From: Pyrinomonadaceae bacterium
GTDB taxonomy: Bacteria; Acidobacteriota; Blastocatellia; Pyrinomonadales; Pyrinomonadaceae
Reading direction: 5' to 3'
Assembly: GCA_036522415.1 (NCBI GenBank)
Contig: DATDFV010000230.1
Span: 43,783-107,782, forward strand
DNA: 64,000 bases
Part shown: one piece after another, positions 11,890 to 18,265 of the stretch
How positions within the stretch are numbered: position 1 is the first letter of the stretch
Layout: each line of letters begins with the position of its first letter
Made by a program: the position numbers and the translations under genes
Notes under the pieces: model-generated
Databases searched by the model: none
Seen by the model: only the letters and a program-made list of their open reading frames with translations
What the model was told of the DNA's origin: nothing

Positions 11890-11919
11890 TTGACACCTGT
11901 TTCAGTTAGCACCTATAGT
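11890..11919 (+). promoter_or_regulatory. sigma70-like promoter (TTGACA-18-TATAGT)
   Basis: TTGACA at 11890-11895 and TATAGT at 11914-11919. It lies upstream of the leader ORF and cysM operon. Confidence 0.5.
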
Positions 11920-11952: not shown

Positions 11953-12054
11953 ATGAAACTGAAGGCTTGCGCATGTTGTTATTACTGCCCCTGGTGCTGC
12001 TATTTGCAGCGCGACCGGAAGGCCGTGTGCAGGCGTGAGGGGCGGGAGACGTAG
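11953..12054 (+). CDS. candidate Cys-codon-rich leader peptide (33 aa)
   Basis: MKLKACACCYYCPWCCYLQRDRKAVCRREGRET. It has 7 Cys codons including two tandem pairs. It sits between the promoter-like element and the terminator preceding cysM. No clear SD. An overlapping 21-codon ORF starts at 11973. Confidence 0.35.
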   Translation: MKLKACACCYYCPWCCYLQRDRKAVCRREGRET

Positions 12055-12084
12055 CCAAACACCAGCACTAATAAACGGCAGATA

Positions 12085-12118
12085 CCGGTTGCGCTATTTC
12101 GATAGCCGACCGGTTTTT
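12085..12118 (+). terminator. intrinsic terminator (attenuator arm) 18 nt upstream of the cysM start
   Basis: CCGGTTG, a 15-nt loop, CGACCGG, then TTTTT. The 5' arm can alternatively pair with GCGCGACCGG at 12010-12019 inside the leader ORF. Confidence 0.6.
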
Positions 12119-12135
12119 AGTTTTCAACGGTCTTT

Positions 12136-13068
12136 ATGTCACTTAGTGTTTTAGAAGAATGCGGAGTTGCTGCTCCTGGCAGTATCGAATCACGCATCGG
12201 GCATACGCCTCTCTTGCGCTTGCCGCACCTGAATCGCGATTTGCCGGTTGATGTGGAAATTCTCGTCAAAGCCGAACACCTCAACCCGGGCGGTTCTGTA
12301 AAAGACCGACCTGCGCTGTCGATGATCCTCGAGGGTGAACGCAGCGGAAGGCTGCGACCCGGCATGACTATTGTCGATGCGACCAGCGGTAACACTGGAA
12401 TTGCTTACGCTATGATCGGCGCTGCTCGGGGTTATCCAGTCACCGTCTGTTTACCAAAAAACGCAAGTATCCAGCGCAAAAACATCCTGCGAGCGTATGG
12501 CGTTGAGATCATTGAGACTGACCAGATGTTGTCAACCGACGGCGCTCAACGCATCGCGCGCGAGCTTCACGCGGCCGAACCCGACAAATACTTCTACCCC
12601 GATCAATACAACAACGACGCCAACTGGCTGGCGCACTACGAAACGACGGCAAACGAGATCTGGACACAAACCGAAGGACGTGTTACGCACTTCCTGACAG
12701 GTCTCGGCACCTCTGGAACCTTCACGGGTGTTGTTCGCCGCCTGCGTGAGTTAAAACCTGAGCTGAACGCGTTGTCTGTTCAACCGGAATCTCCCTTGCA
12801 CGGGCTCGAAGGTCTGAAACATATGGCAACAGCTTCGCATCCCGGAATTTATGATGAAACTTTGGTGGATCGCGTTATCGAAGTGTCAACAGAAGATGCC
12901 TTTGACATGTCCAGGCGCCTGGCGCGTGAACAAGGTTTATTGGTTGGGCCAAGTTCAGGAGCGAACGTATTTGCCGCCCGAAAACTCGCGCACTCATTGA
13001 GCGTTGACGCAGTAATTGTCACAATACTCTGCGACGGCGGTGAAAGATACTTAAGCGAGATGCTTTGA
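12136..13068 (+). CDS. cysM: cysteine synthase, CysM/CysK family (PLP-dependent)
   Basis: PLP-lysine motif SVKDRPA, glycine-rich loops GNTG and GTSGT. It is the first gene of the operon containing mec and cysO-moeZ. Confidence 0.9.
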   Translation: MSLSVLEECGVAAPGSIESRIGHTPLLRLPHLNRDLPVDVEILVKAEHLNPGGSVKDRPALSMILEGERSGRLRPGMTIVDATSGNTGIAYAMIGAARGYPVTVCLPKNASIQRKNILRAYGVEIIETDQMLSTDGAQRIARELHAAEPDKYFYPDQYNNDANWLAHYETTANEIWTQTEGRVTHFLTGLGTSGTFTGVVRRLRELKPELNALSVQPESPLHGLEGLKHMATASHPGIYDETLVDRVIEVSTEDAFDMSRRLAREQGLLVGPSSGANVFAARKLAHSLSVDAVIVTILCDGGERYLSEML

Positions 13069-14267
13069 TGGCTGACAAGGAACCCACATTCGATATCGCG
13101 ACGAAGCTGGTTCATAGCGGCGAGCGGCAGACCGCATCCGACGCTCAGTCAGTTGCGACGCCGATCTATGCCACTGCCACGTTCACCTACGAATCGATGG
13201 AGGAGATCGATCGCGTGTTCAGCGGCGAAAAGCAGGGCTTTATCTACACGCGCTATGGAAATCCAACTATCGGTGCCCTTGAGAATGCGATTAAAACTAT
13301 CGAGGAAGGTGCAACTGCGTGTGCATATTCCACCGGCATGGCCGCGCTGCACGCAGCGCTATTTGCGTGTGATTTGAAACCCGGTGCCACAATCGTCGCT
13401 TCTCAAGATCTATACGGTGCGACTACTGGCCTTTTGAATACGGTGTTTGGCTCGTTCGGCATCAAGACTGTTGCTACGGATTTCAGTAATCTTGAACAAT
13501 TACGAGCAGCAGTGCTGGAGGCAAAGCCGGCGGTTCTGGTTGCAGAAACTATCTCAAATCCACTACTGAAAGTTTGCGACATCGAGGCCTGCGCTGAAAT
13601 CGCCCGCGAAGTCGGAGCGCGGTTAATCGTGGATAACACGTTTGCTTCGCCATACCTCTGCCAACCTCTAAAGTTCGGAGCTGACCTCGTTGTTCACAGC
13701 GCAACAAAATACCTGGGGGGCCACGCTGATGCGATGGGCGGCCTGGTTGTCTCGCGGGATGAGTTTGATAGCCTGGCACTGGTCGGCGTAATGAAACTGG
13801 TTGGCGGAGTTCTAAGTGTCTGGGACGCGCACCAAATTTCGCGTGGGATTAAAACGCTTGGTGTTCGGCTCGATCGTCAATGTGAGAATGCCAGAGTGCT
13901 GGCGGAACACCTGCGAAAAGACGAACGAATAGATGAGGTTTATTATCCGGGATTTCAGTCGGCAGTTGATTTAGTAGTTACTCGGCGAATGCTGAGAAAG
14001 CCGCACTCGGGTGCGTTGGTATCGATCAAACTGAAGAACGACACCCGCGAAGCTGCGTTTCGATTCATGAATGCTTTGCGGTTGTGTGTGCGTTCGACGA
14101 GTTTAGGAGATGTTTTTACCAGCGTGCTGCACCCATCAACTGCTTCGCACAGAGATTTGACACCAGCTCGAAGGGCGGAGCTTGGGATCGCGGATGGACT
14201 GATTCGGATTTCGGTGGGAATTGAGAGTGTTGATGACATAATTGCAGATATTACACAGGCATTGTGA
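13065..14267 (+). CDS. Cys/Met-metabolism PLP-dependent enzyme (MetB/MetZ/MetY family sulfhydrylase or gamma-synthase)
   Basis: SATKYLGGHAD PLP-lysine motif. Its start overlaps the cysM stop (ATGA). Confidence 0.85.
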   Translation: MMADKEPTFDIATKLVHSGERQTASDAQSVATPIYATATFTYESMEEIDRVFSGEKQGFIYTRYGNPTIGALENAIKTIEEGATACAYSTGMAALHAALFACDLKPGATIVASQDLYGATTGLLNTVFGSFGIKTVATDFSNLEQLRAAVLEAKPAVLVAETISNPLLKVCDIEACAEIAREVGARLIVDNTFASPYLCQPLKFGADLVVHSATKYLGGHADAMGGLVVSRDEFDSLALVGVMKLVGGVLSVWDAHQISRGIKTLGVRLDRQCENARVLAEHLRKDERIDEVYYPGFQSAVDLVVTRRMLRKPHSGALVSIKLKNDTREAAFRFMNALRLCVRSTSLGDVFTSVLHPSTASHRDLTPARRAELGIADGLIRISVGIESVDDIIADITQAL

Positions 14268-14339: not shown

Positions 14340-14771
14340 ATGCTAACACTGACGCCAACACATCTCGCGGAAATCTCAAGTCATGGGGAGCGTGACTACC
14401 CTTATGAATGCTGCGGACTGCTCATCGGCCGATTTGATTCAGTCGAGGAAAAGGTGGTCTTGGAGACATATCCGATCTCAAATGCGCGTGAGGAGAGTGC
14501 GAAACGGAATAGGTTTTTAATTGAACCTGAAGAGTTAATGAAAGGAGAGCGGTACGCGCGAACCAACGATCGTGAGGTCGTCGGTTTCTACCATTCGCAT
14601 CCTGAATCACCTGCGGTGCCGTCGCAGTACGATCTGGAACATGCATGGCCGACGTACTCCTATATTATTGTGTCAGTTATTAAAGAGAGGGCCGGCGACC
14701 TGTTTTCATGGGAACAGGAACCTGACAGATCGAAGTTTACGAAGGAAGATATTAAGATTGCGGGGCTTTGA
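14340..14771 (+). CDS. mec: JAMM/MPN+ metalloprotease, Mec (CysO-Cys hydrolase) type
   Basis: JAMM motif HSHPESPAVPSQYD plus upstream E and CCGLLIG. 143 aa. Confidence 0.85.
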   Translation: MLTLTPTHLAEISSHGERDYPYECCGLLIGRFDSVEEKVVLETYPISNAREESAKRNRFLIEPEELMKGERYARTNDREVVGFYHSHPESPAVPSQYDLEHAWPTYSYIIVSVIKERAGDLFSWEQEPDRSKFTKEDIKIAGL

Positions 14772-14862
14772 TTTTTGTACTTTGTTCTTCGTGCTTTGTT
14801 CTTTGCATATCTACCGCCTTAACATAAAACAAAGCACAAAGCACCAAGTACAAAGCACAAAC
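14772..14862. repeat. family E heptamer-array hairpin (TTTGTNC arms) inside the operon
   Basis: tttgtac tttgttc ttcgtgc tttgttc tttg, then a loop, then caaagcacaaagcaccaagtacaaagcacaaa. Confidence 0.8.
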
Positions 14863-14893
14863 GTAAAAGTATTAAGTTGTTGAGAGGATTGTT

Positions 14894-16345
14894 ATGCCAA
14901 TCAAAATTGCCATTCCAGCTCCATTGCGGCAGTTTGCCAGTGGACATTCCCAAATCGAAGTCGAGGCAAAGACGGCGGGCGAAGCGCTCGATCTCCTAAC
15001 TTCAACGCACGCTCCATTACGCAAGCATCTTTTCAACGAGCAGAACAGGCTCCGCAACTTCGTGAATGTTTACCTGAACGATGAGGACATTCGTCATGCT
15101 TCGGGACCTGACACTCCGTTAAAAGACGGCGATACGCTCATGATTGTGCCGTCGATTGCTGGAGGTGCGGTGATCGAAGAAGAAGTTGGACAAGCGCTTC
15201 CGGAGTTGTCCAACGAAGAGATCCTCCGTTACAGCCGGCATTTGATCATGCCTGAAGTTGGAATGCAGGGTCAGCGAAAGATGAAAGCCTCGAGCGTGTT
15301 GATGATTGGTACTGGTGGACTCGGCGCGCCCGTAGGCATGTATCTGGCAGCGGCCGGCGTCGGTCGAATCGGAATTGTGGATTTCGATGTGGTTGAGGAA
15401 TCGAACCTGCAACGTCAGATTATTCACGGGACCAAAGACCTCGGTCGCCGCAAAATCGAATCGGCCCGTGATCGGTTGCGCGACATCAACCCGCACATTG
15501 AGATCGAGACTCACGAATCGAGACTGACAAGTCAGAACGCGATGGCCCTGTTTCGAAACTACGACATCATAGTCGACGGTACAGACAATTTCCCGACTCG
15601 TTATCTCGTAAACGATGCTTGCGTGTTAACGGGTAAACCGAATGTCTACGGATCGATCTTCAGATTTGAGGGACAGGCCAGTGTGTTCTGGGCCGAGAAG
15701 GGTGCTTGTTATCGCTGTCTTTATCCGGAACCGCCGCCGCCTGGCCTGGTTCCATCATGCGCCGAGGGAGGCGTACTCGGAGTTCTGCCTGGCATTGTTG
15801 GTGCGATTCAGGCAAACGAAACGATCAAGATCATTCTCGGCTCAGAAGATATTCTCGTGAATCGTTTGTTGTTGTTTGATGCCTGGACGATGAAGTTTCG
15901 AGAGTTCAAGTTGCGGAAAGATCCGAAGTGTCCGGTTTGCGGCGAACAACCAACAATTAAAGGTTTGATTGATTACGAAGAGTTCTGCGGTTTGCGAGCG
16001 CAGCCGCCTGTTCCCGAATCAAAGTTGGAACAGATCTCTGCTATGGAACTGAATGCCCGCCGCCTGCGTGGCGACAAGATCCAGATCATCGATGTGCGCG
16101 AACCGCACGAGTTTGAGATCGCTCGTATACCGGGAACAAAACTAATTCCGCTGGGACACGTAGTGAGCAGGATGAATGAAATCGATCAGGAAGTGGACAC
16201 GATTGTTCATTGCAAGGGCGGTGTGCGCAGTGCCAAGGCAATTGAGGCATTGAAACGCGCCGGCTTCAATGGGAAGTTGATCAATCTGAAAGGTGGAATC
16301 ACCGCGTGGTCGGAAGAGGTTGACCCGCGGGTGGCGAAATACTGA
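14894..16345 (+). CDS. in-frame fusion: CysO/ThiS/MoaD-like sulfur carrier (aa 1-91, ending GG) + MoeZ/MoeB E1-like adenylyltransferase + rhodanese
   Basis: N-terminus FVNVYLNDEDIRH...MIVPSIAGG is a CysO-like beta-grasp domain. It then reads without a stop into RYSRHLIMPEVG, GTGGLGAP, CYRC/CPVC and the rhodanese HCKGGVRS. GGA GGT (15161-15166) doubles as an SD for GTG 15170. Confidence 0.8.
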   Translation: MPIKIAIPAPLRQFASGHSQIEVEAKTAGEALDLLTSTHAPLRKHLFNEQNRLRNFVNVYLNDEDIRHASGPDTPLKDGDTLMIVPSIAGGAVIEEEVGQALPELSNEEILRYSRHLIMPEVGMQGQRKMKASSVLMIGTGGLGAPVGMYLAAAGVGRIGIVDFDVVEESNLQRQIIHGTKDLGRRKIESARDRLRDINPHIEIETHESRLTSQNAMALFRNYDIIVDGTDNFPTRYLVNDACVLTGKPNVYGSIFRFEGQASVFWAEKGACYRCLYPEPPPPGLVPSCAEGGVLGVLPGIVGAIQANETIKIILGSEDILVNRLLLFDAWTMKFREFKLRKDPKCPVCGEQPTIKGLIDYEEFCGLRAQPPVPESKLEQISAMELNARRLRGDKIQIIDVREPHEFEIARIPGTKLIPLGHVVSRMNEIDQEVDTIVHCKGGVRSAKAIEALKRAGFNGKLINLKGGITAWSEEVDPRVAKY

Positions 16346-16418: not shown

Positions 16419-16605
16419 TGGGGCGCCAGCCCCAGGGTAGAAGTGCGATACGAGCATCGAGCCCGCGGAGCGGGCGAAAGCGGATTGGTTGATGAGGCAT
16501 AACCTCGACCCGCTGTCGCCCGCTTCGCGGGCTCGGTATTTTAATCCATCGTGTCCTGGGGCTAACGCCCCAGGGTTTACGCTTGTCGCCCGCTCCGCGG
16601 GCTAG
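16419..16605. repeat. array of 5 GC-rich hairpins between convergent genes
   Basis: ggggcgccagcccc and ggggctaacgcccc, alternating with three copies of gcccgcKKMgcgggc (gagcccgcggagcgggcga, gtcgcccgcttcgcgggctc, gtcgcccgctccgcgggcta). Confidence 0.7.
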
Positions 16606-18089
16606 TCCACACTGATCCCCAATCGATCAGCACATTTGAAGAGCGATAGACCAAGCACACACGCAATCACGAGGTTGAAGTAGAAGGTGATTGAGCCGTT
16701 GATGAAGTTCGCCACCAGATTGCCTACAAAAGGCAGTGTCAGTGGAGAAAGAATAAGCGCCACGACACCTCCGACTATGAAAGCCGCAATTTGAACGAGC
16801 AACACCATCCCGAACGCTTTGAAGTAGGTCGAGCGCATACGGCGAATGGTGTCCAGTCCAACCAGGGGATTTAGGACTGACAAAAAGCTTTGCGTGTAGC
16901 CGGCGACCGTGAGCGCCATTGGGTAATAGAAAACTCCCCAGGCAATGCCGAGCAACAGGAGAAGAATCAAAAGAATTCCGGCTCCCAGCAAAGGCAACAA
17001 TTGGCCCATCATGCCGGTTGGATCACTGCGAGCAGCTTTTGATCGCTCCGCCTCTTCAGCAATCTGCGAACCCGGTCGCAGTTTTTGATTCATCTTACGG
17101 TCGACTTCCGCCACCTTCTGCGGATCTGCGTTGGGATCGGTCAGCACACTGAGGTCTTCATTGTTCAGGGTCTCTTGCTGATGAGCTGCCTCAACCTGAC
17201 CCATGGGATCCAGCGACGCCCTGCCGCTGTGGATAGCGCCAAACAGCAACGCGACAACCAATACAATCACCGGCCCCCACGAAACGATTGTGATTCCAAC
17301 GCCCAGAAAGATCGGAACAATCAAATCGTCCCATAAAGAGAATGCGCTGAAGTCAGGCATGAAACTGCGATTGAGTCGTCCCCACGCAACTTGACTTATC
17401 ACGTGCGAGATACAACCAAACATAATCATCCAGGCGATAAGGCTTCCACGAAAACCGCCGAGCAGCAGAAAACCATATATCAGAGCACCGCCCAGCAATG
17501 CTGCTTTGTGTTGGAACGGATACTTCACCGCTCTCACAAAATCATCTATGCCAAACCCGGAGCCCTGAAACTCGGCACGTGCTGTTTTTGACGTAACCTC
17601 TTGATATGAGCGGCACAGGTCGCCGCATAGTGGGCACACCGGAATCTTGCTGCTACCCACGAAGCGAGGACAGTCTTCACACAATGCGACTGCACACATA
17701 CGGCAAAGGTACTTCGCGGGAACATCCGTATGGTTGTGACAAACATTGGGTGGTGGGCCTTCTCGAAAAGCCTGACTGTTCGTGGTATTTGGTTCAAAGT
17801 CGGGAGATTCAAACGGTTCTGTACTTCCGAACGGAGGCGGCATTTGCCATGCGTTGGTTGATGACGACGCGTCGGTTGACTCTTCAGGTGGAGGAACTTC
17901 AATTTCGCCATTGAAGGCACTTTTTAGCTTTGGAACACGGCCAGCTTCAATCCAGTTGAGTTTGCCTTTACAAACTTTGTCGGTTGGCAAGACGCAGCCT
18001 TCAACGATCCACTGCTGTAAAGTTTGGAAGTCGGTTTCAAAGACTCCTTCGTAAGTCGAAACACGCCATATTTCTGGTTGTGCACTCAT
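16602..18089 (-). CDS. membrane protein: N-terminal soluble domain, Cys-rich zinc-ribbon/B-box-like segment, C-terminal Yip1-like multi-TM domain
   Basis: CHNHTDVPAKYLCRMCAVALCEDCP...CPLCGDLC plus 5-6 TM helices. Start chosen at MSAQPEIW (the ORF track extends to 18173). Confidence 0.65.
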   Translation of the reverse strand: MSAQPEIWRVSTYEGVFETDFQTLQQWIVEGCVLPTDKVCKGKLNWIEAGRVPKLKSAFNGEIEVPPPEESTDASSSTNAWQMPPPFGSTEPFESPDFEPNTTNSQAFREGPPPNVCHNHTDVPAKYLCRMCAVALCEDCPRFVGSSKIPVCPLCGDLCRSYQEVTSKTARAEFQGSGFGIDDFVRAVKYPFQHKAALLGGALIYGFLLLGGFRGSLIAWMIMFGCISHVISQVAWGRLNRSFMPDFSAFSLWDDLIVPIFLGVGITIVSWGPVIVLVVALLFGAIHSGRASLDPMGQVEAAHQQETLNNEDLSVLTDPNADPQKVAEVDRKMNQKLRPGSQIAEEAERSKAARSDPTGMMGQLLPLLGAGILLILLLLLGIAWGVFYYPMALTVAGYTQSFLSVLNPLVGLDTIRRMRSTYFKAFGMVLLVQIAAFIVGGVVALILSPLTLPFVGNLVANFINGSITFYFNLVIACVLGLSLFKCADRLGISVD

Positions 18090-18265
18090 AGAGGTTGATT
18101 CCTGAAGGCGAACTTCTGTAGGGGCGTTCGCGAAGTGTGGCGACTGTCGCTTGGGACGTGAGGTTGGCGTCAATTGGACAGCTGGGCCAGACGCCTTAGG
18201 AATACTAGACTGTGGCTTTTGGCAGCGTCAATAGTTTGTTTTGACCGAATAGGCGGCCCGACATT

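Follow-up and report, generated by a model that had tools for sequence, protein, structure and literature searches.

A ubiquitin-like sulfur carrier encoded in one chain with its own E1 enzyme in Acidobacteriota, and its probable release by a neighboring JAMM protease

Adenylation of a ubiquitin-like sulfur carrier by its E1 enzyme requires a free carboxylate at the C-terminus of the carrier. How, then, can a carrier be activated when its terminal Gly-Gly (GG) is encoded in the interior of a longer polypeptide? This question is raised by a 64,000-nucleotide stretch of DNA from a soil bacterium of the Pyrinomonadaceae, in the phylum Acidobacteriota (contig DATDFV010000230.1, hereafter the window). 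Here, an open reading frame (ORF) on the plus strand at 14894-16345, with an ATG start, encodes a 483-residue fusion of a CysO-type sulfur carrier with an E1-rhodanese enzyme, downstream of genes for a CysM-like cysteine synthase and a JAMM metalloprotease. The probable answer, in our view, is that the genes form a CysO/MoeZ/CysM/Mec-type operon for thiocarboxylate-dependent cysteine synthesis, in which the fused carrier-E1 precursor is cut after the GG by the neighboring JAMM protease.

Three Pfam domains, ThiS, ThiF and Rhodanese, share the single frame of the fusion ORF. The N-terminal domain matches ThiS (PF02597) over residues 7-91 with 44.6 bits (cut-off 22.5) and its C-terminal end reads ...VPSIAGG, while the NCBIfam scores for SAMP1 (56.8, cut-off 60) and moaD_arch (45.7, cut-off 49.5) fall slightly under the respective thresholds. 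Its closest solved structures are a ThiS/MoaD-family carrier (4N6E_B, 1.1e-18) and Mycobacterium (M.) tuberculosis CysO (3DWG_C, 1.3e-13). Both are free-standing proteins that align from end to end with the domain, their terminal GG falling on Gly90-Gly91, and the CysO-like identity proposed in an earlier, sequence-only reading of the locus is thereby confirmed: judged by these similarities, the domain is of the CysO type. In the AlphaFold model the carrier residues 1-85 have predicted local distance difference test (pLDDT) values of 76-92, and their strands and helices follow one another as expected.

The remainder of the protein matches ThiF (PF00899, residues 113-348, 280 bits) and Rhodanese (PF00581, residues 389-475, 55.7 bits), where the active-site residue Cys440 is invariant across 66 aligned homologues. 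Full-length NCBIfam MoeB/MoeZ models align with residues 103/104-483. The cut-off of the MoeB model PRK08762 is reached (453.4 vs 449) and those of the MoeZ equivalogs are missed (PRK07878, 513.5 vs 647; PRK07411, 551 vs 633). On these scores the protein is clearly a relative, even though the MoeZ models call no equivalog. The motifs RYSRH, GTGGLGAP, CYRC, CPVC and HCKGGVRS can all be read in the translation, i.e., the ORF, the domain layout and the motifs given in the sequence-only reading are reproduced by translation and Pfam.

The fusion is real, recurrent and widespread. In a search of 5.8 billion proteins the best 120 matches have the same three Pfam domains, a length near 483 residues and an identity of 97% to 77%; several are named as proteins of Pyrinomonadaceae/Acidobacteriota metagenome-assembled genomes (MAGs), with the annotation "MoeB" only. 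Without exception, these 120 homologues display IAGG, followed by 10-26 variable residues and the conserved LPxLSNEEIxRYSRH. When residues 1-135 were compared exhaustively with 1.84 billion cluster representatives, 5060 matches were obtained, and among the best 150 of these (representatives of clusters at 50% identity) at least 70 run from carrier through linker to RYSRH, at 40-60% identity. Across homologues the stretch between GG and RYSRH ranges from ~10 to ~45 residues and is not conserved in sequence, whereas Pro86, Ala89, Gly90 and Gly91 are invariant. The invariance of the GG extends over the 120 homologues, 26 distant fused proteins and 79 of 80 genome loci, the 80th being interrupted by the end of its contig.

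These 80 loci were found in a scan of one genome per species (GTDB) using a seven-sequence alignment of the carrier only, so that the search would not favor fusions. The carrier is fused in 23 of them and encoded by a separate gene in 56, with one locus cut off by a contig end. Fused loci are found in Pyrinomonadaceae and Blastocatellia, including the cultured Pyrinomonas methylaliphatogenes K22 (L005), in Bryobacterales, Terriglobia, Thermoanaerobaculia, Armatimonadota and Chthonomonadia, as well as in one Elusimicrobia MAG and one Brevinematales MAG. The gene order cysM-JAMM-carrier-E1/rhodanese, with one carrier gene per locus, is seen in 78 of the 80 loci, and in 78 of the 80 the JAMM gene immediately precedes that of the carrier. 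Metagenomes were also scanned with residues 1-135, which yielded another 80 loci. The junction is spanned in 76 of them, and of the 71 with enough flanking sequence, 69 have the JAMM gene as the immediate upstream neighbor.

All 56 unfused carriers bear between 1 and 112 residues after an invariant IAGG (median ~5; e.g., GG-R, GG-L, GG-ARS, GG-CCC and GG-SxxRCICS), and none stops at the GG. Because all of them are extended in this manner, the fusion can be regarded as the extreme of a graded series of precursors in which the C-terminus of the carrier is blocked. In a neighbor-joining tree of the E1 domains the fused forms are scattered among the unfused ones, at no fewer than five separate positions, a count that is approximate because the tree is a quick distance tree. 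The Bryobacterales, for example, are mixed, with L024, L035 and L041 fused and L010, L078 and L080 unfused.

Many of the unfused carriers have Cys-rich tails after the GG (L013, L023, L025, L027, L029 and L058; L048 and L053; and the representatives P0218, P0224, P0237 and P0258). In one clade the tail is conserved as ...RCICS/CCICS/RCICT, and others read GG-CC, GG-CCC, GG-CCALI or GG-CCCCCCL. The terminal Cys codons, which are located just before the start of the E1 gene, might sense the supply of Cys-tRNA, or the cysteines might bind metal.

As encoded, the GG of the fusion is internal. No stop codon follows it, the frame runs on from position 15166 into the E1 and 392 residues lie downstream of Gly91, which means that a free C-terminal carboxylate would need proteolysis. 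The stretch from GG to RYSRH comprises 20 residues, and the stand-alone E1s of unfused loci start 16-28 residues before RYSRH. The AlphaFold model has pLDDT values below 50 at residues 86-120, a segment that spans the junction, which fits an exposed site. Release by a cut after the GG, already proposed in the sequence-only reading, is the most economical account of the extended unfused carriers, the hypervariable linker and the invariant IAGG; the cut itself is a step that we infer.

In the mechanism that we propose, the carrier gene has become joined in frame to the gene of the E1-rhodanese downstream, and the 483-residue product would be a precursor in which the upstream-encoded JAMM protease cuts the peptide bond after Gly91. 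This cut would free a carrier of 91 residues whose Gly-Gly carboxylate is exposed, as well as an E1-rhodanese that starts ~20 residues before RYSRH, i.e., an enzyme of normal stand-alone length with a near-native N-terminus. The E1 would then adenylate the carrier, the rhodanese domain would make the thiocarboxylate, and CysM would turn the carrier thiocarboxylate into a carrier-cysteine adduct, which the same JAMM protease would hydrolyze, again after the GG. The chemistry and the dual role of the protease are, like the cleavage, what we infer from the architecture and its relatives. Because each turn of the catalytic cycle would require the protease, the carrier would tolerate any extension at its C-terminus, even a whole E1. 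Repeated fusion would be explained by this tolerance, read-through into the adjacent E1 gene being simply a longer extension.

The individual reactions have precedents. In M. tuberculosis, MoeZR thiocarboxylates CysO, CysM forms the CysO-cysteine adduct and Mec+ hydrolyzes this adduct (PMC3227635); the same four protein types are clustered there as here, and the carrier domain matches M. tuberculosis CysO. In contrast to the present locus, where carrier and E1 form one ORF, M. tuberculosis CysO is a separate 93-residue protein that ends exactly at the GG, and moeZ is unfused. The gene order here, cysM-(pyridoxal phosphate (PLP) enzyme)-JAMM-carrier::E1, also differs, and the CysM is nearer to that of E. 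coli, with O-phosphoserine or O-acetylserine as candidate substrates. Cleavage of a linear fusion of a carrier with its partner by a JAMM protease, after the terminal glycine of the carrier, is known for MoaD-MoaE of D. radiodurans (DR0402) and for SAMP1-MoaE of H. volcanii (HvJAMM1) (PMC8832034), and mycobacterial MoaX is likewise a JAMM-processed carrier-partner fusion (PMC3227635). Iyer et al. 2006 suggested that JAB proteases might cleave ThiS/MoaD domains off fused proteins (PMC1779556).

In the MoaE fusions the partner consumes the thiocarboxylate in molybdopterin synthesis, whereas in the present case the partner is the activating E1 and the presumed cleavage would serve cysteine synthesis. 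Removal of shorter extensions is also on record: in work attributed to Godert in 2007, QbsE of P. fluorescens, which ends in GG-CF, is said to lose its post-GG residues to QbsD, a JAMM protease from the same operon, before activation by the E1, and HcyS-Ala of W. succinogenes was reportedly trimmed by HcyD in a study by Krishnamoorthy and Begley from 2011. These extensions are one or two residues long and belong to siderophore and homocysteine pathways, whereas the "extension" discussed here is a 392-residue enzyme; residues past the GG are likewise present on all unfused carriers of the relatives. In eukaryotes, polyubiquitin and fusions of ubiquitin with ribosomal proteins are linear precursors in which a ubiquitin-like (Ubl) unit ending in GG is released by a deubiquitinase-type protease. 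There, the partners are ribosomal proteins or further copies of ubiquitin, the proteases are mostly cysteine proteases and the purpose is protein conjugation, in contrast to sulfur transfer here.

Operons that combine ThiS/MoaD, an E1-rhodanese, JAB and a cysteine synthase, including one in an acidobacterium, were described by Iyer, Burroughs and Aravind 2006 (PMC1779556), and Ubl-E1-TBP fusions shared with bacteria by Makarova and Koonin 2010 (PMC2948915). In the literature compared, which did not include Burroughs et al. 2009 on the E1-like superfamily, no description or test of a fusion between a CysO-type carrier and its E1-rhodanese was found. The architecture is therefore a widespread, uncharacterized variant of a known pathway, whose likely processing follows precedent. 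Since the idea goes back to a prediction of 2006 and cuts of a similar kind have been demonstrated, the proposal is plausible rather than surprising to a specialist.

A number of points weigh against the proposed mechanism. Cleavage is presumed for this as for any CysO-E1 fusion. The JAMM gene is equally frequent at fused and unfused loci and is no specific mark of fusion processing; of the link between fusions and mec that the sequence-only reading wished to see profiled, the presence of a JAMM gene beside the fusions was found, but a link specific to fusions was not. With a mean pLDDT of 67.8 the AlphaFold model is of moderate quality only, which makes the disordered linker weak evidence. 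A second, free carrier may be encoded elsewhere in the genome, the view being that of the 64-kb window. Finally, the CysM-like enzyme scores just under the NCBIfam cut-offs (TIGR01138 cysM, 351.9 vs 394.2; TIGR01136 cysKM, 340 vs 344.15), and its use of a protein thiocarboxylate over sulfide is presumed from the conserved operon linkage only.

A wider proposition, which we put forward tentatively and hold to be rather doubtful, is that the whole carrier clade (in Acidobacteriota, Armatimonadota and others) is obligatorily blocked, that the JAMM protease acts both as maturase and as cysteine-releasing hydrolase, and that this dual role allowed the at least five fusions to the E1. If this were true, no bacterial system would come closer to the processing of ubiquitin precursors. 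Another possibility is that cleavage serves as a regulated, zymogen-like switch, by which a need for cysteine would activate carrier and E1 at the same time.

The first alternative to be weighed is that the beta-grasp domain is never cleaved and, as an integral domain for regulation or docking, occupies the carrier-binding site of the E1, the real carrier being encoded elsewhere. This alternative, which we regard as unlikely, has a parallel in the ThiF proteins with an N-terminal Ub-like domain that occur together with a stand-alone ThiS, for which Iyer et al. 2006 argued a different role (PMC1779556), and it gains from the restriction of our view to one window of the genome. However, the domain occupies the operon slot of the stand-alone carrier and is its orthologue by both position and sequence, and no second carrier gene is seen in any fused locus or in the window. 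There, a profile of 119 carrier domains, run against all six-frame ORFs, retrieved no carrier ORF other than the fusion, which, together with the single carrier of each related locus, upholds the earlier statement that the operon has no free-standing cysO. Furthermore, IAGG is strictly invariant in the fused forms, and a domain that is never cleaved would not need it. The parallel itself is also imperfect. The Ub-like-ThiF proteins of epsilon-proteobacteria and Firmicutes and the Ubl-E1-TBP fusions likewise have a beta-grasp domain at the N-terminus of an E1-like protein (PMC1779556, PMC2948915), but in Ub-like-ThiF, including the Campylobacter type, that domain was described as distinct from ThiS, a separate ThiS co-occurs and a JAB protein is unreported (PMC1779556). 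In contrast, the domain discussed here is CysO-type and the sole carrier of its operon, keeps the GG, lies beside a JAMM gene and is joined to an E1 with a rhodanese domain.

A second alternative is that one ORF gives two products, i.e., that translation of the E1 also starts at the GTG at 15170, with GGAGG of the Gly-Gly codons as ribosome-binding site. The positions on which the sequence-only reading based this idea are correct (GGA GGT at 15161-15166, GTG at 15170, a TGA in the +1 frame at 15171-15173 and no stop in frame). GGAGGT followed by GTG is present, Val93 is found 19 residues before RYSRH, inside the 16-28-residue range of stand-alone E1 starts, and 7 of the 10 closest relatives have GTG as the codon two positions after the GG, while L001 has ATG at the same position, within ATGA. 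Yet the spacing between GGAGG and GTG is only 4 nt and GTG makes up 42% of the Val codons of the gene. GGAGG at the Gly-Gly codons is found in 6 of 23 fused vs 10 of 56 unfused genome loci and in only 2 of the 10 closest relatives; since fused loci do not have it more often than unfused ones, it reflects ordinary glycine codon choice. In the 23 genome and ~57 metagenome fused loci compared, most fused lineages outside the closest clade have ACG, ACC, CCG or a similar codon two positions after the GG. Internal initiation would, in addition, leave the carrier blocked, so that cleavage would still be required. A conserved internal start is thus ruled out, and independent translation of the E1 has become quite improbable. 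To judge from the codon comparison, the GTG is probably a vestige of a former E1 start; GTGA here and ATGA in L001 could, as a speculation, be remains of the overlapping stop and start of once separate genes. Programmed frameshifting, an idea suggested by the +1 TGA, was set aside since the DNA of the junction is not conserved.

The last alternative, that a sequencing or assembly error lost a stop or shifted the frame between two genes which are indeed adjacent in unfused relatives (a +1 shift would reach the TGA), has a negligible probability and is ruled out by conservation: the in-frame fusion is found in 120 of 120 homologues, in 23 of 80 genome loci and in 76 of 80 metagenome loci, in all in hundreds of independent assemblies and an isolate genome, with linkers that differ in length and sequence.

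Table 1. Features of the operon and its surroundings (positions are those of the window).
Feature	Position	Strand	Description
Promoter-like site TTGACA-18-TATAGT	11890..11919	+	Upstream of the operon; consensus scan, 11/12 matches, pattern match only
Cys-rich leader ORF MKLKACACCYYCPWCCYLQRDRKAVCRREGRET	11954..12054	+	33 codons, 8 cysteines (MKLKACACCYYCPWCCYLQ...); between promoter-like site and cysM
Terminator-like hairpin followed by U run	12084..12119	+	Between leader ORF and cysM; RNA fold and sequence
CysM-like cysteine synthase, PLP enzyme	12136..13068	+	310 aa; Pfam PALP, 247 bits
Cys/Met-metabolism PLP enzyme, MetB/MetZ/methionine-gamma-lyase-like	13065..14267	+	~400 aa; Pfam Cys_Met_Meta_PP, 393 bits
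JAMM/MPN+ metalloprotease, Mec-like	14340..14771	+	143 aa; Pfam Prok-JAB PF14464, 87.3 bits
Imperfect inverted repeat, 40-nt arms	14766..14869	+	In the 122-nt spacer; -32 kcal/mol, z = -2.4
CysO-type beta-grasp sulfur-carrier domain	14894..15166	+	Residues 1-91, ending in IAGG; Pfam ThiS, PDB matches
Gly90-Gly91 codons GGA GGT	15161..15166	+	Predicted JAMM cleavage site after Gly91; GG invariant in homologues
Hypervariable linker	15167..15199	+	Residues 92-102; counterpart of the N-terminal tail in free-standing E1 enzymes
In-frame GTG (Val93) in GTGA motif	15170..15172	+	Probably vestigial E1 start, not a conserved internal start
MoeB/ThiF-type E1 adenylation domain	15200..15937	+	GTGGLGAP; CYRC and CPVC zinc motifs; Pfam ThiF
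Rhodanese sulfurtransferase domain	16058..16318	+	Active-site Cys440 in HCKGGVRS; Pfam Rhodanese
Terminator-like GC hairpin and T run	16518..16542	+	Downstream of the operon; pattern match only

The other enzymes of the operon are listed in Table 1. The JAMM motif of the protease, read from the translation, is intact (E23...H85-S-H87-x7-S95-x2-D98; motif definition E-x(n)-H-S/T-H-x7-S-x2-D from PMC8832034), and its best solved relative is 2KCQ (2e-21). That of the CysM-like enzyme is E. coli CysM, 2BHS. The sequence-only reading had placed mec and cysM directly upstream of the fusion. Both genes are indeed upstream in the operon, but the JAMM gene is separated from the fusion by a spacer of 122 nt, and cysM is not next to the JAMM gene because the gene for a ~400-residue PLP enzyme (13065/13068-14267), which that reading had missed, intervenes.

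The likely ATG start of this PLP enzyme, at 13068, overlaps the cysM stop. The enzyme falls under every NCBIfam equivalog cut-off and resembles methionine gamma-lyase (its best solved relatives), cystathionine gamma-synthase and O-succinylhomoserine sulfhydrylase. A thiocarboxylate-dependent MetY is known from Wolinella (PMC8191291); assignment of the 13068-14267 product to this type was ruled out, as MetY-class models and structures align over its N-terminal half only. It may either make homocysteine from the carrier thiocarboxylate or link Cys and Met by transsulfuration. The position of the gene varies: it lies between cysM and the JAMM gene here, lies before cysM in Pyrinomonas K22 (L005, 4350-5510) and, in most other loci, is not part of the operon.

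Upstream of cysM, the short leader ORF looks like a candidate cysteine-sensing leader-peptide attenuator, a suggestion drawn from its Cys codons and the hairpin that follows. Similar Cys-rich short ORFs (e.g., MNKSCFCFCCCECCACCWGRDRQSICG...) are located upstream of cysM in L003 (~269), L004 (~3434), L007 (~5281) and L064 (~5316), the loci concerned being three from Pyrinomonadaceae/Blastocatellia and one from Terracidiphilus. To our knowledge, Cys leader attenuators have not been described in Acidobacteriota. In mycobacteria, polycysteine short-ORF attenuators have been reported (bioRxiv 10.1101/834739). An Rfam scan of the whole window at gathering thresholds gave no match to a riboswitch or other known RNA, and no tRNAs were found in the window.

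The inverted repeat in the spacer between the JAMM gene and the fusion is not shared by the closest relatives, and no gap separates the JAMM gene from the start of the carrier in L084-L088. The spacer was considered as a repeated mobile element and rejected, given that the window holds no further copy and close relatives lack the spacer. The repeat may be a lineage-specific insertion, or an element for mRNA processing or stability. Downstream of the operon, the segment 16407-16603 contains dense, nested, GC-rich inverted and direct repeats, including the pairs 16458-16483/16510-16535 (92% complementary) and 16460-16477/16586-16603 (100%). Their arrangement goes beyond that of a simple terminator and may constitute an element like the repetitive extragenic palindromic (REP) sequences. 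The flanking genes are on the opposite strand and unrelated, encoding a DUF5996 protein and a membrane protein. One neighbor (16602-18173, minus strand, 523 residues) has a weak match to the B-box zinc finger as well as a DUF4013 membrane region, which is an odd pairing for a bacterium.

If the JAMM protease cuts the fusion, the protein would be a natural bacterial ubiquitin-like precursor fused to its own activating enzyme, an echo of the ubiquitin precursors of eukaryotes. Release of the carrier by a metalloprotease of the deubiquitinase type would then extend the MoaD-MoaE precedents to a pair of carrier and E1. The use of one enzyme for both precursor maturation and product release would, if true, explain why these operons always keep the JAMM gene. 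Because the fused proteins are annotated only as "MoeB", metabolic reconstructions miss the carrier, and the thiocarboxylate pathway to cysteine may wrongly be deemed absent from many soil Acidobacteriota.

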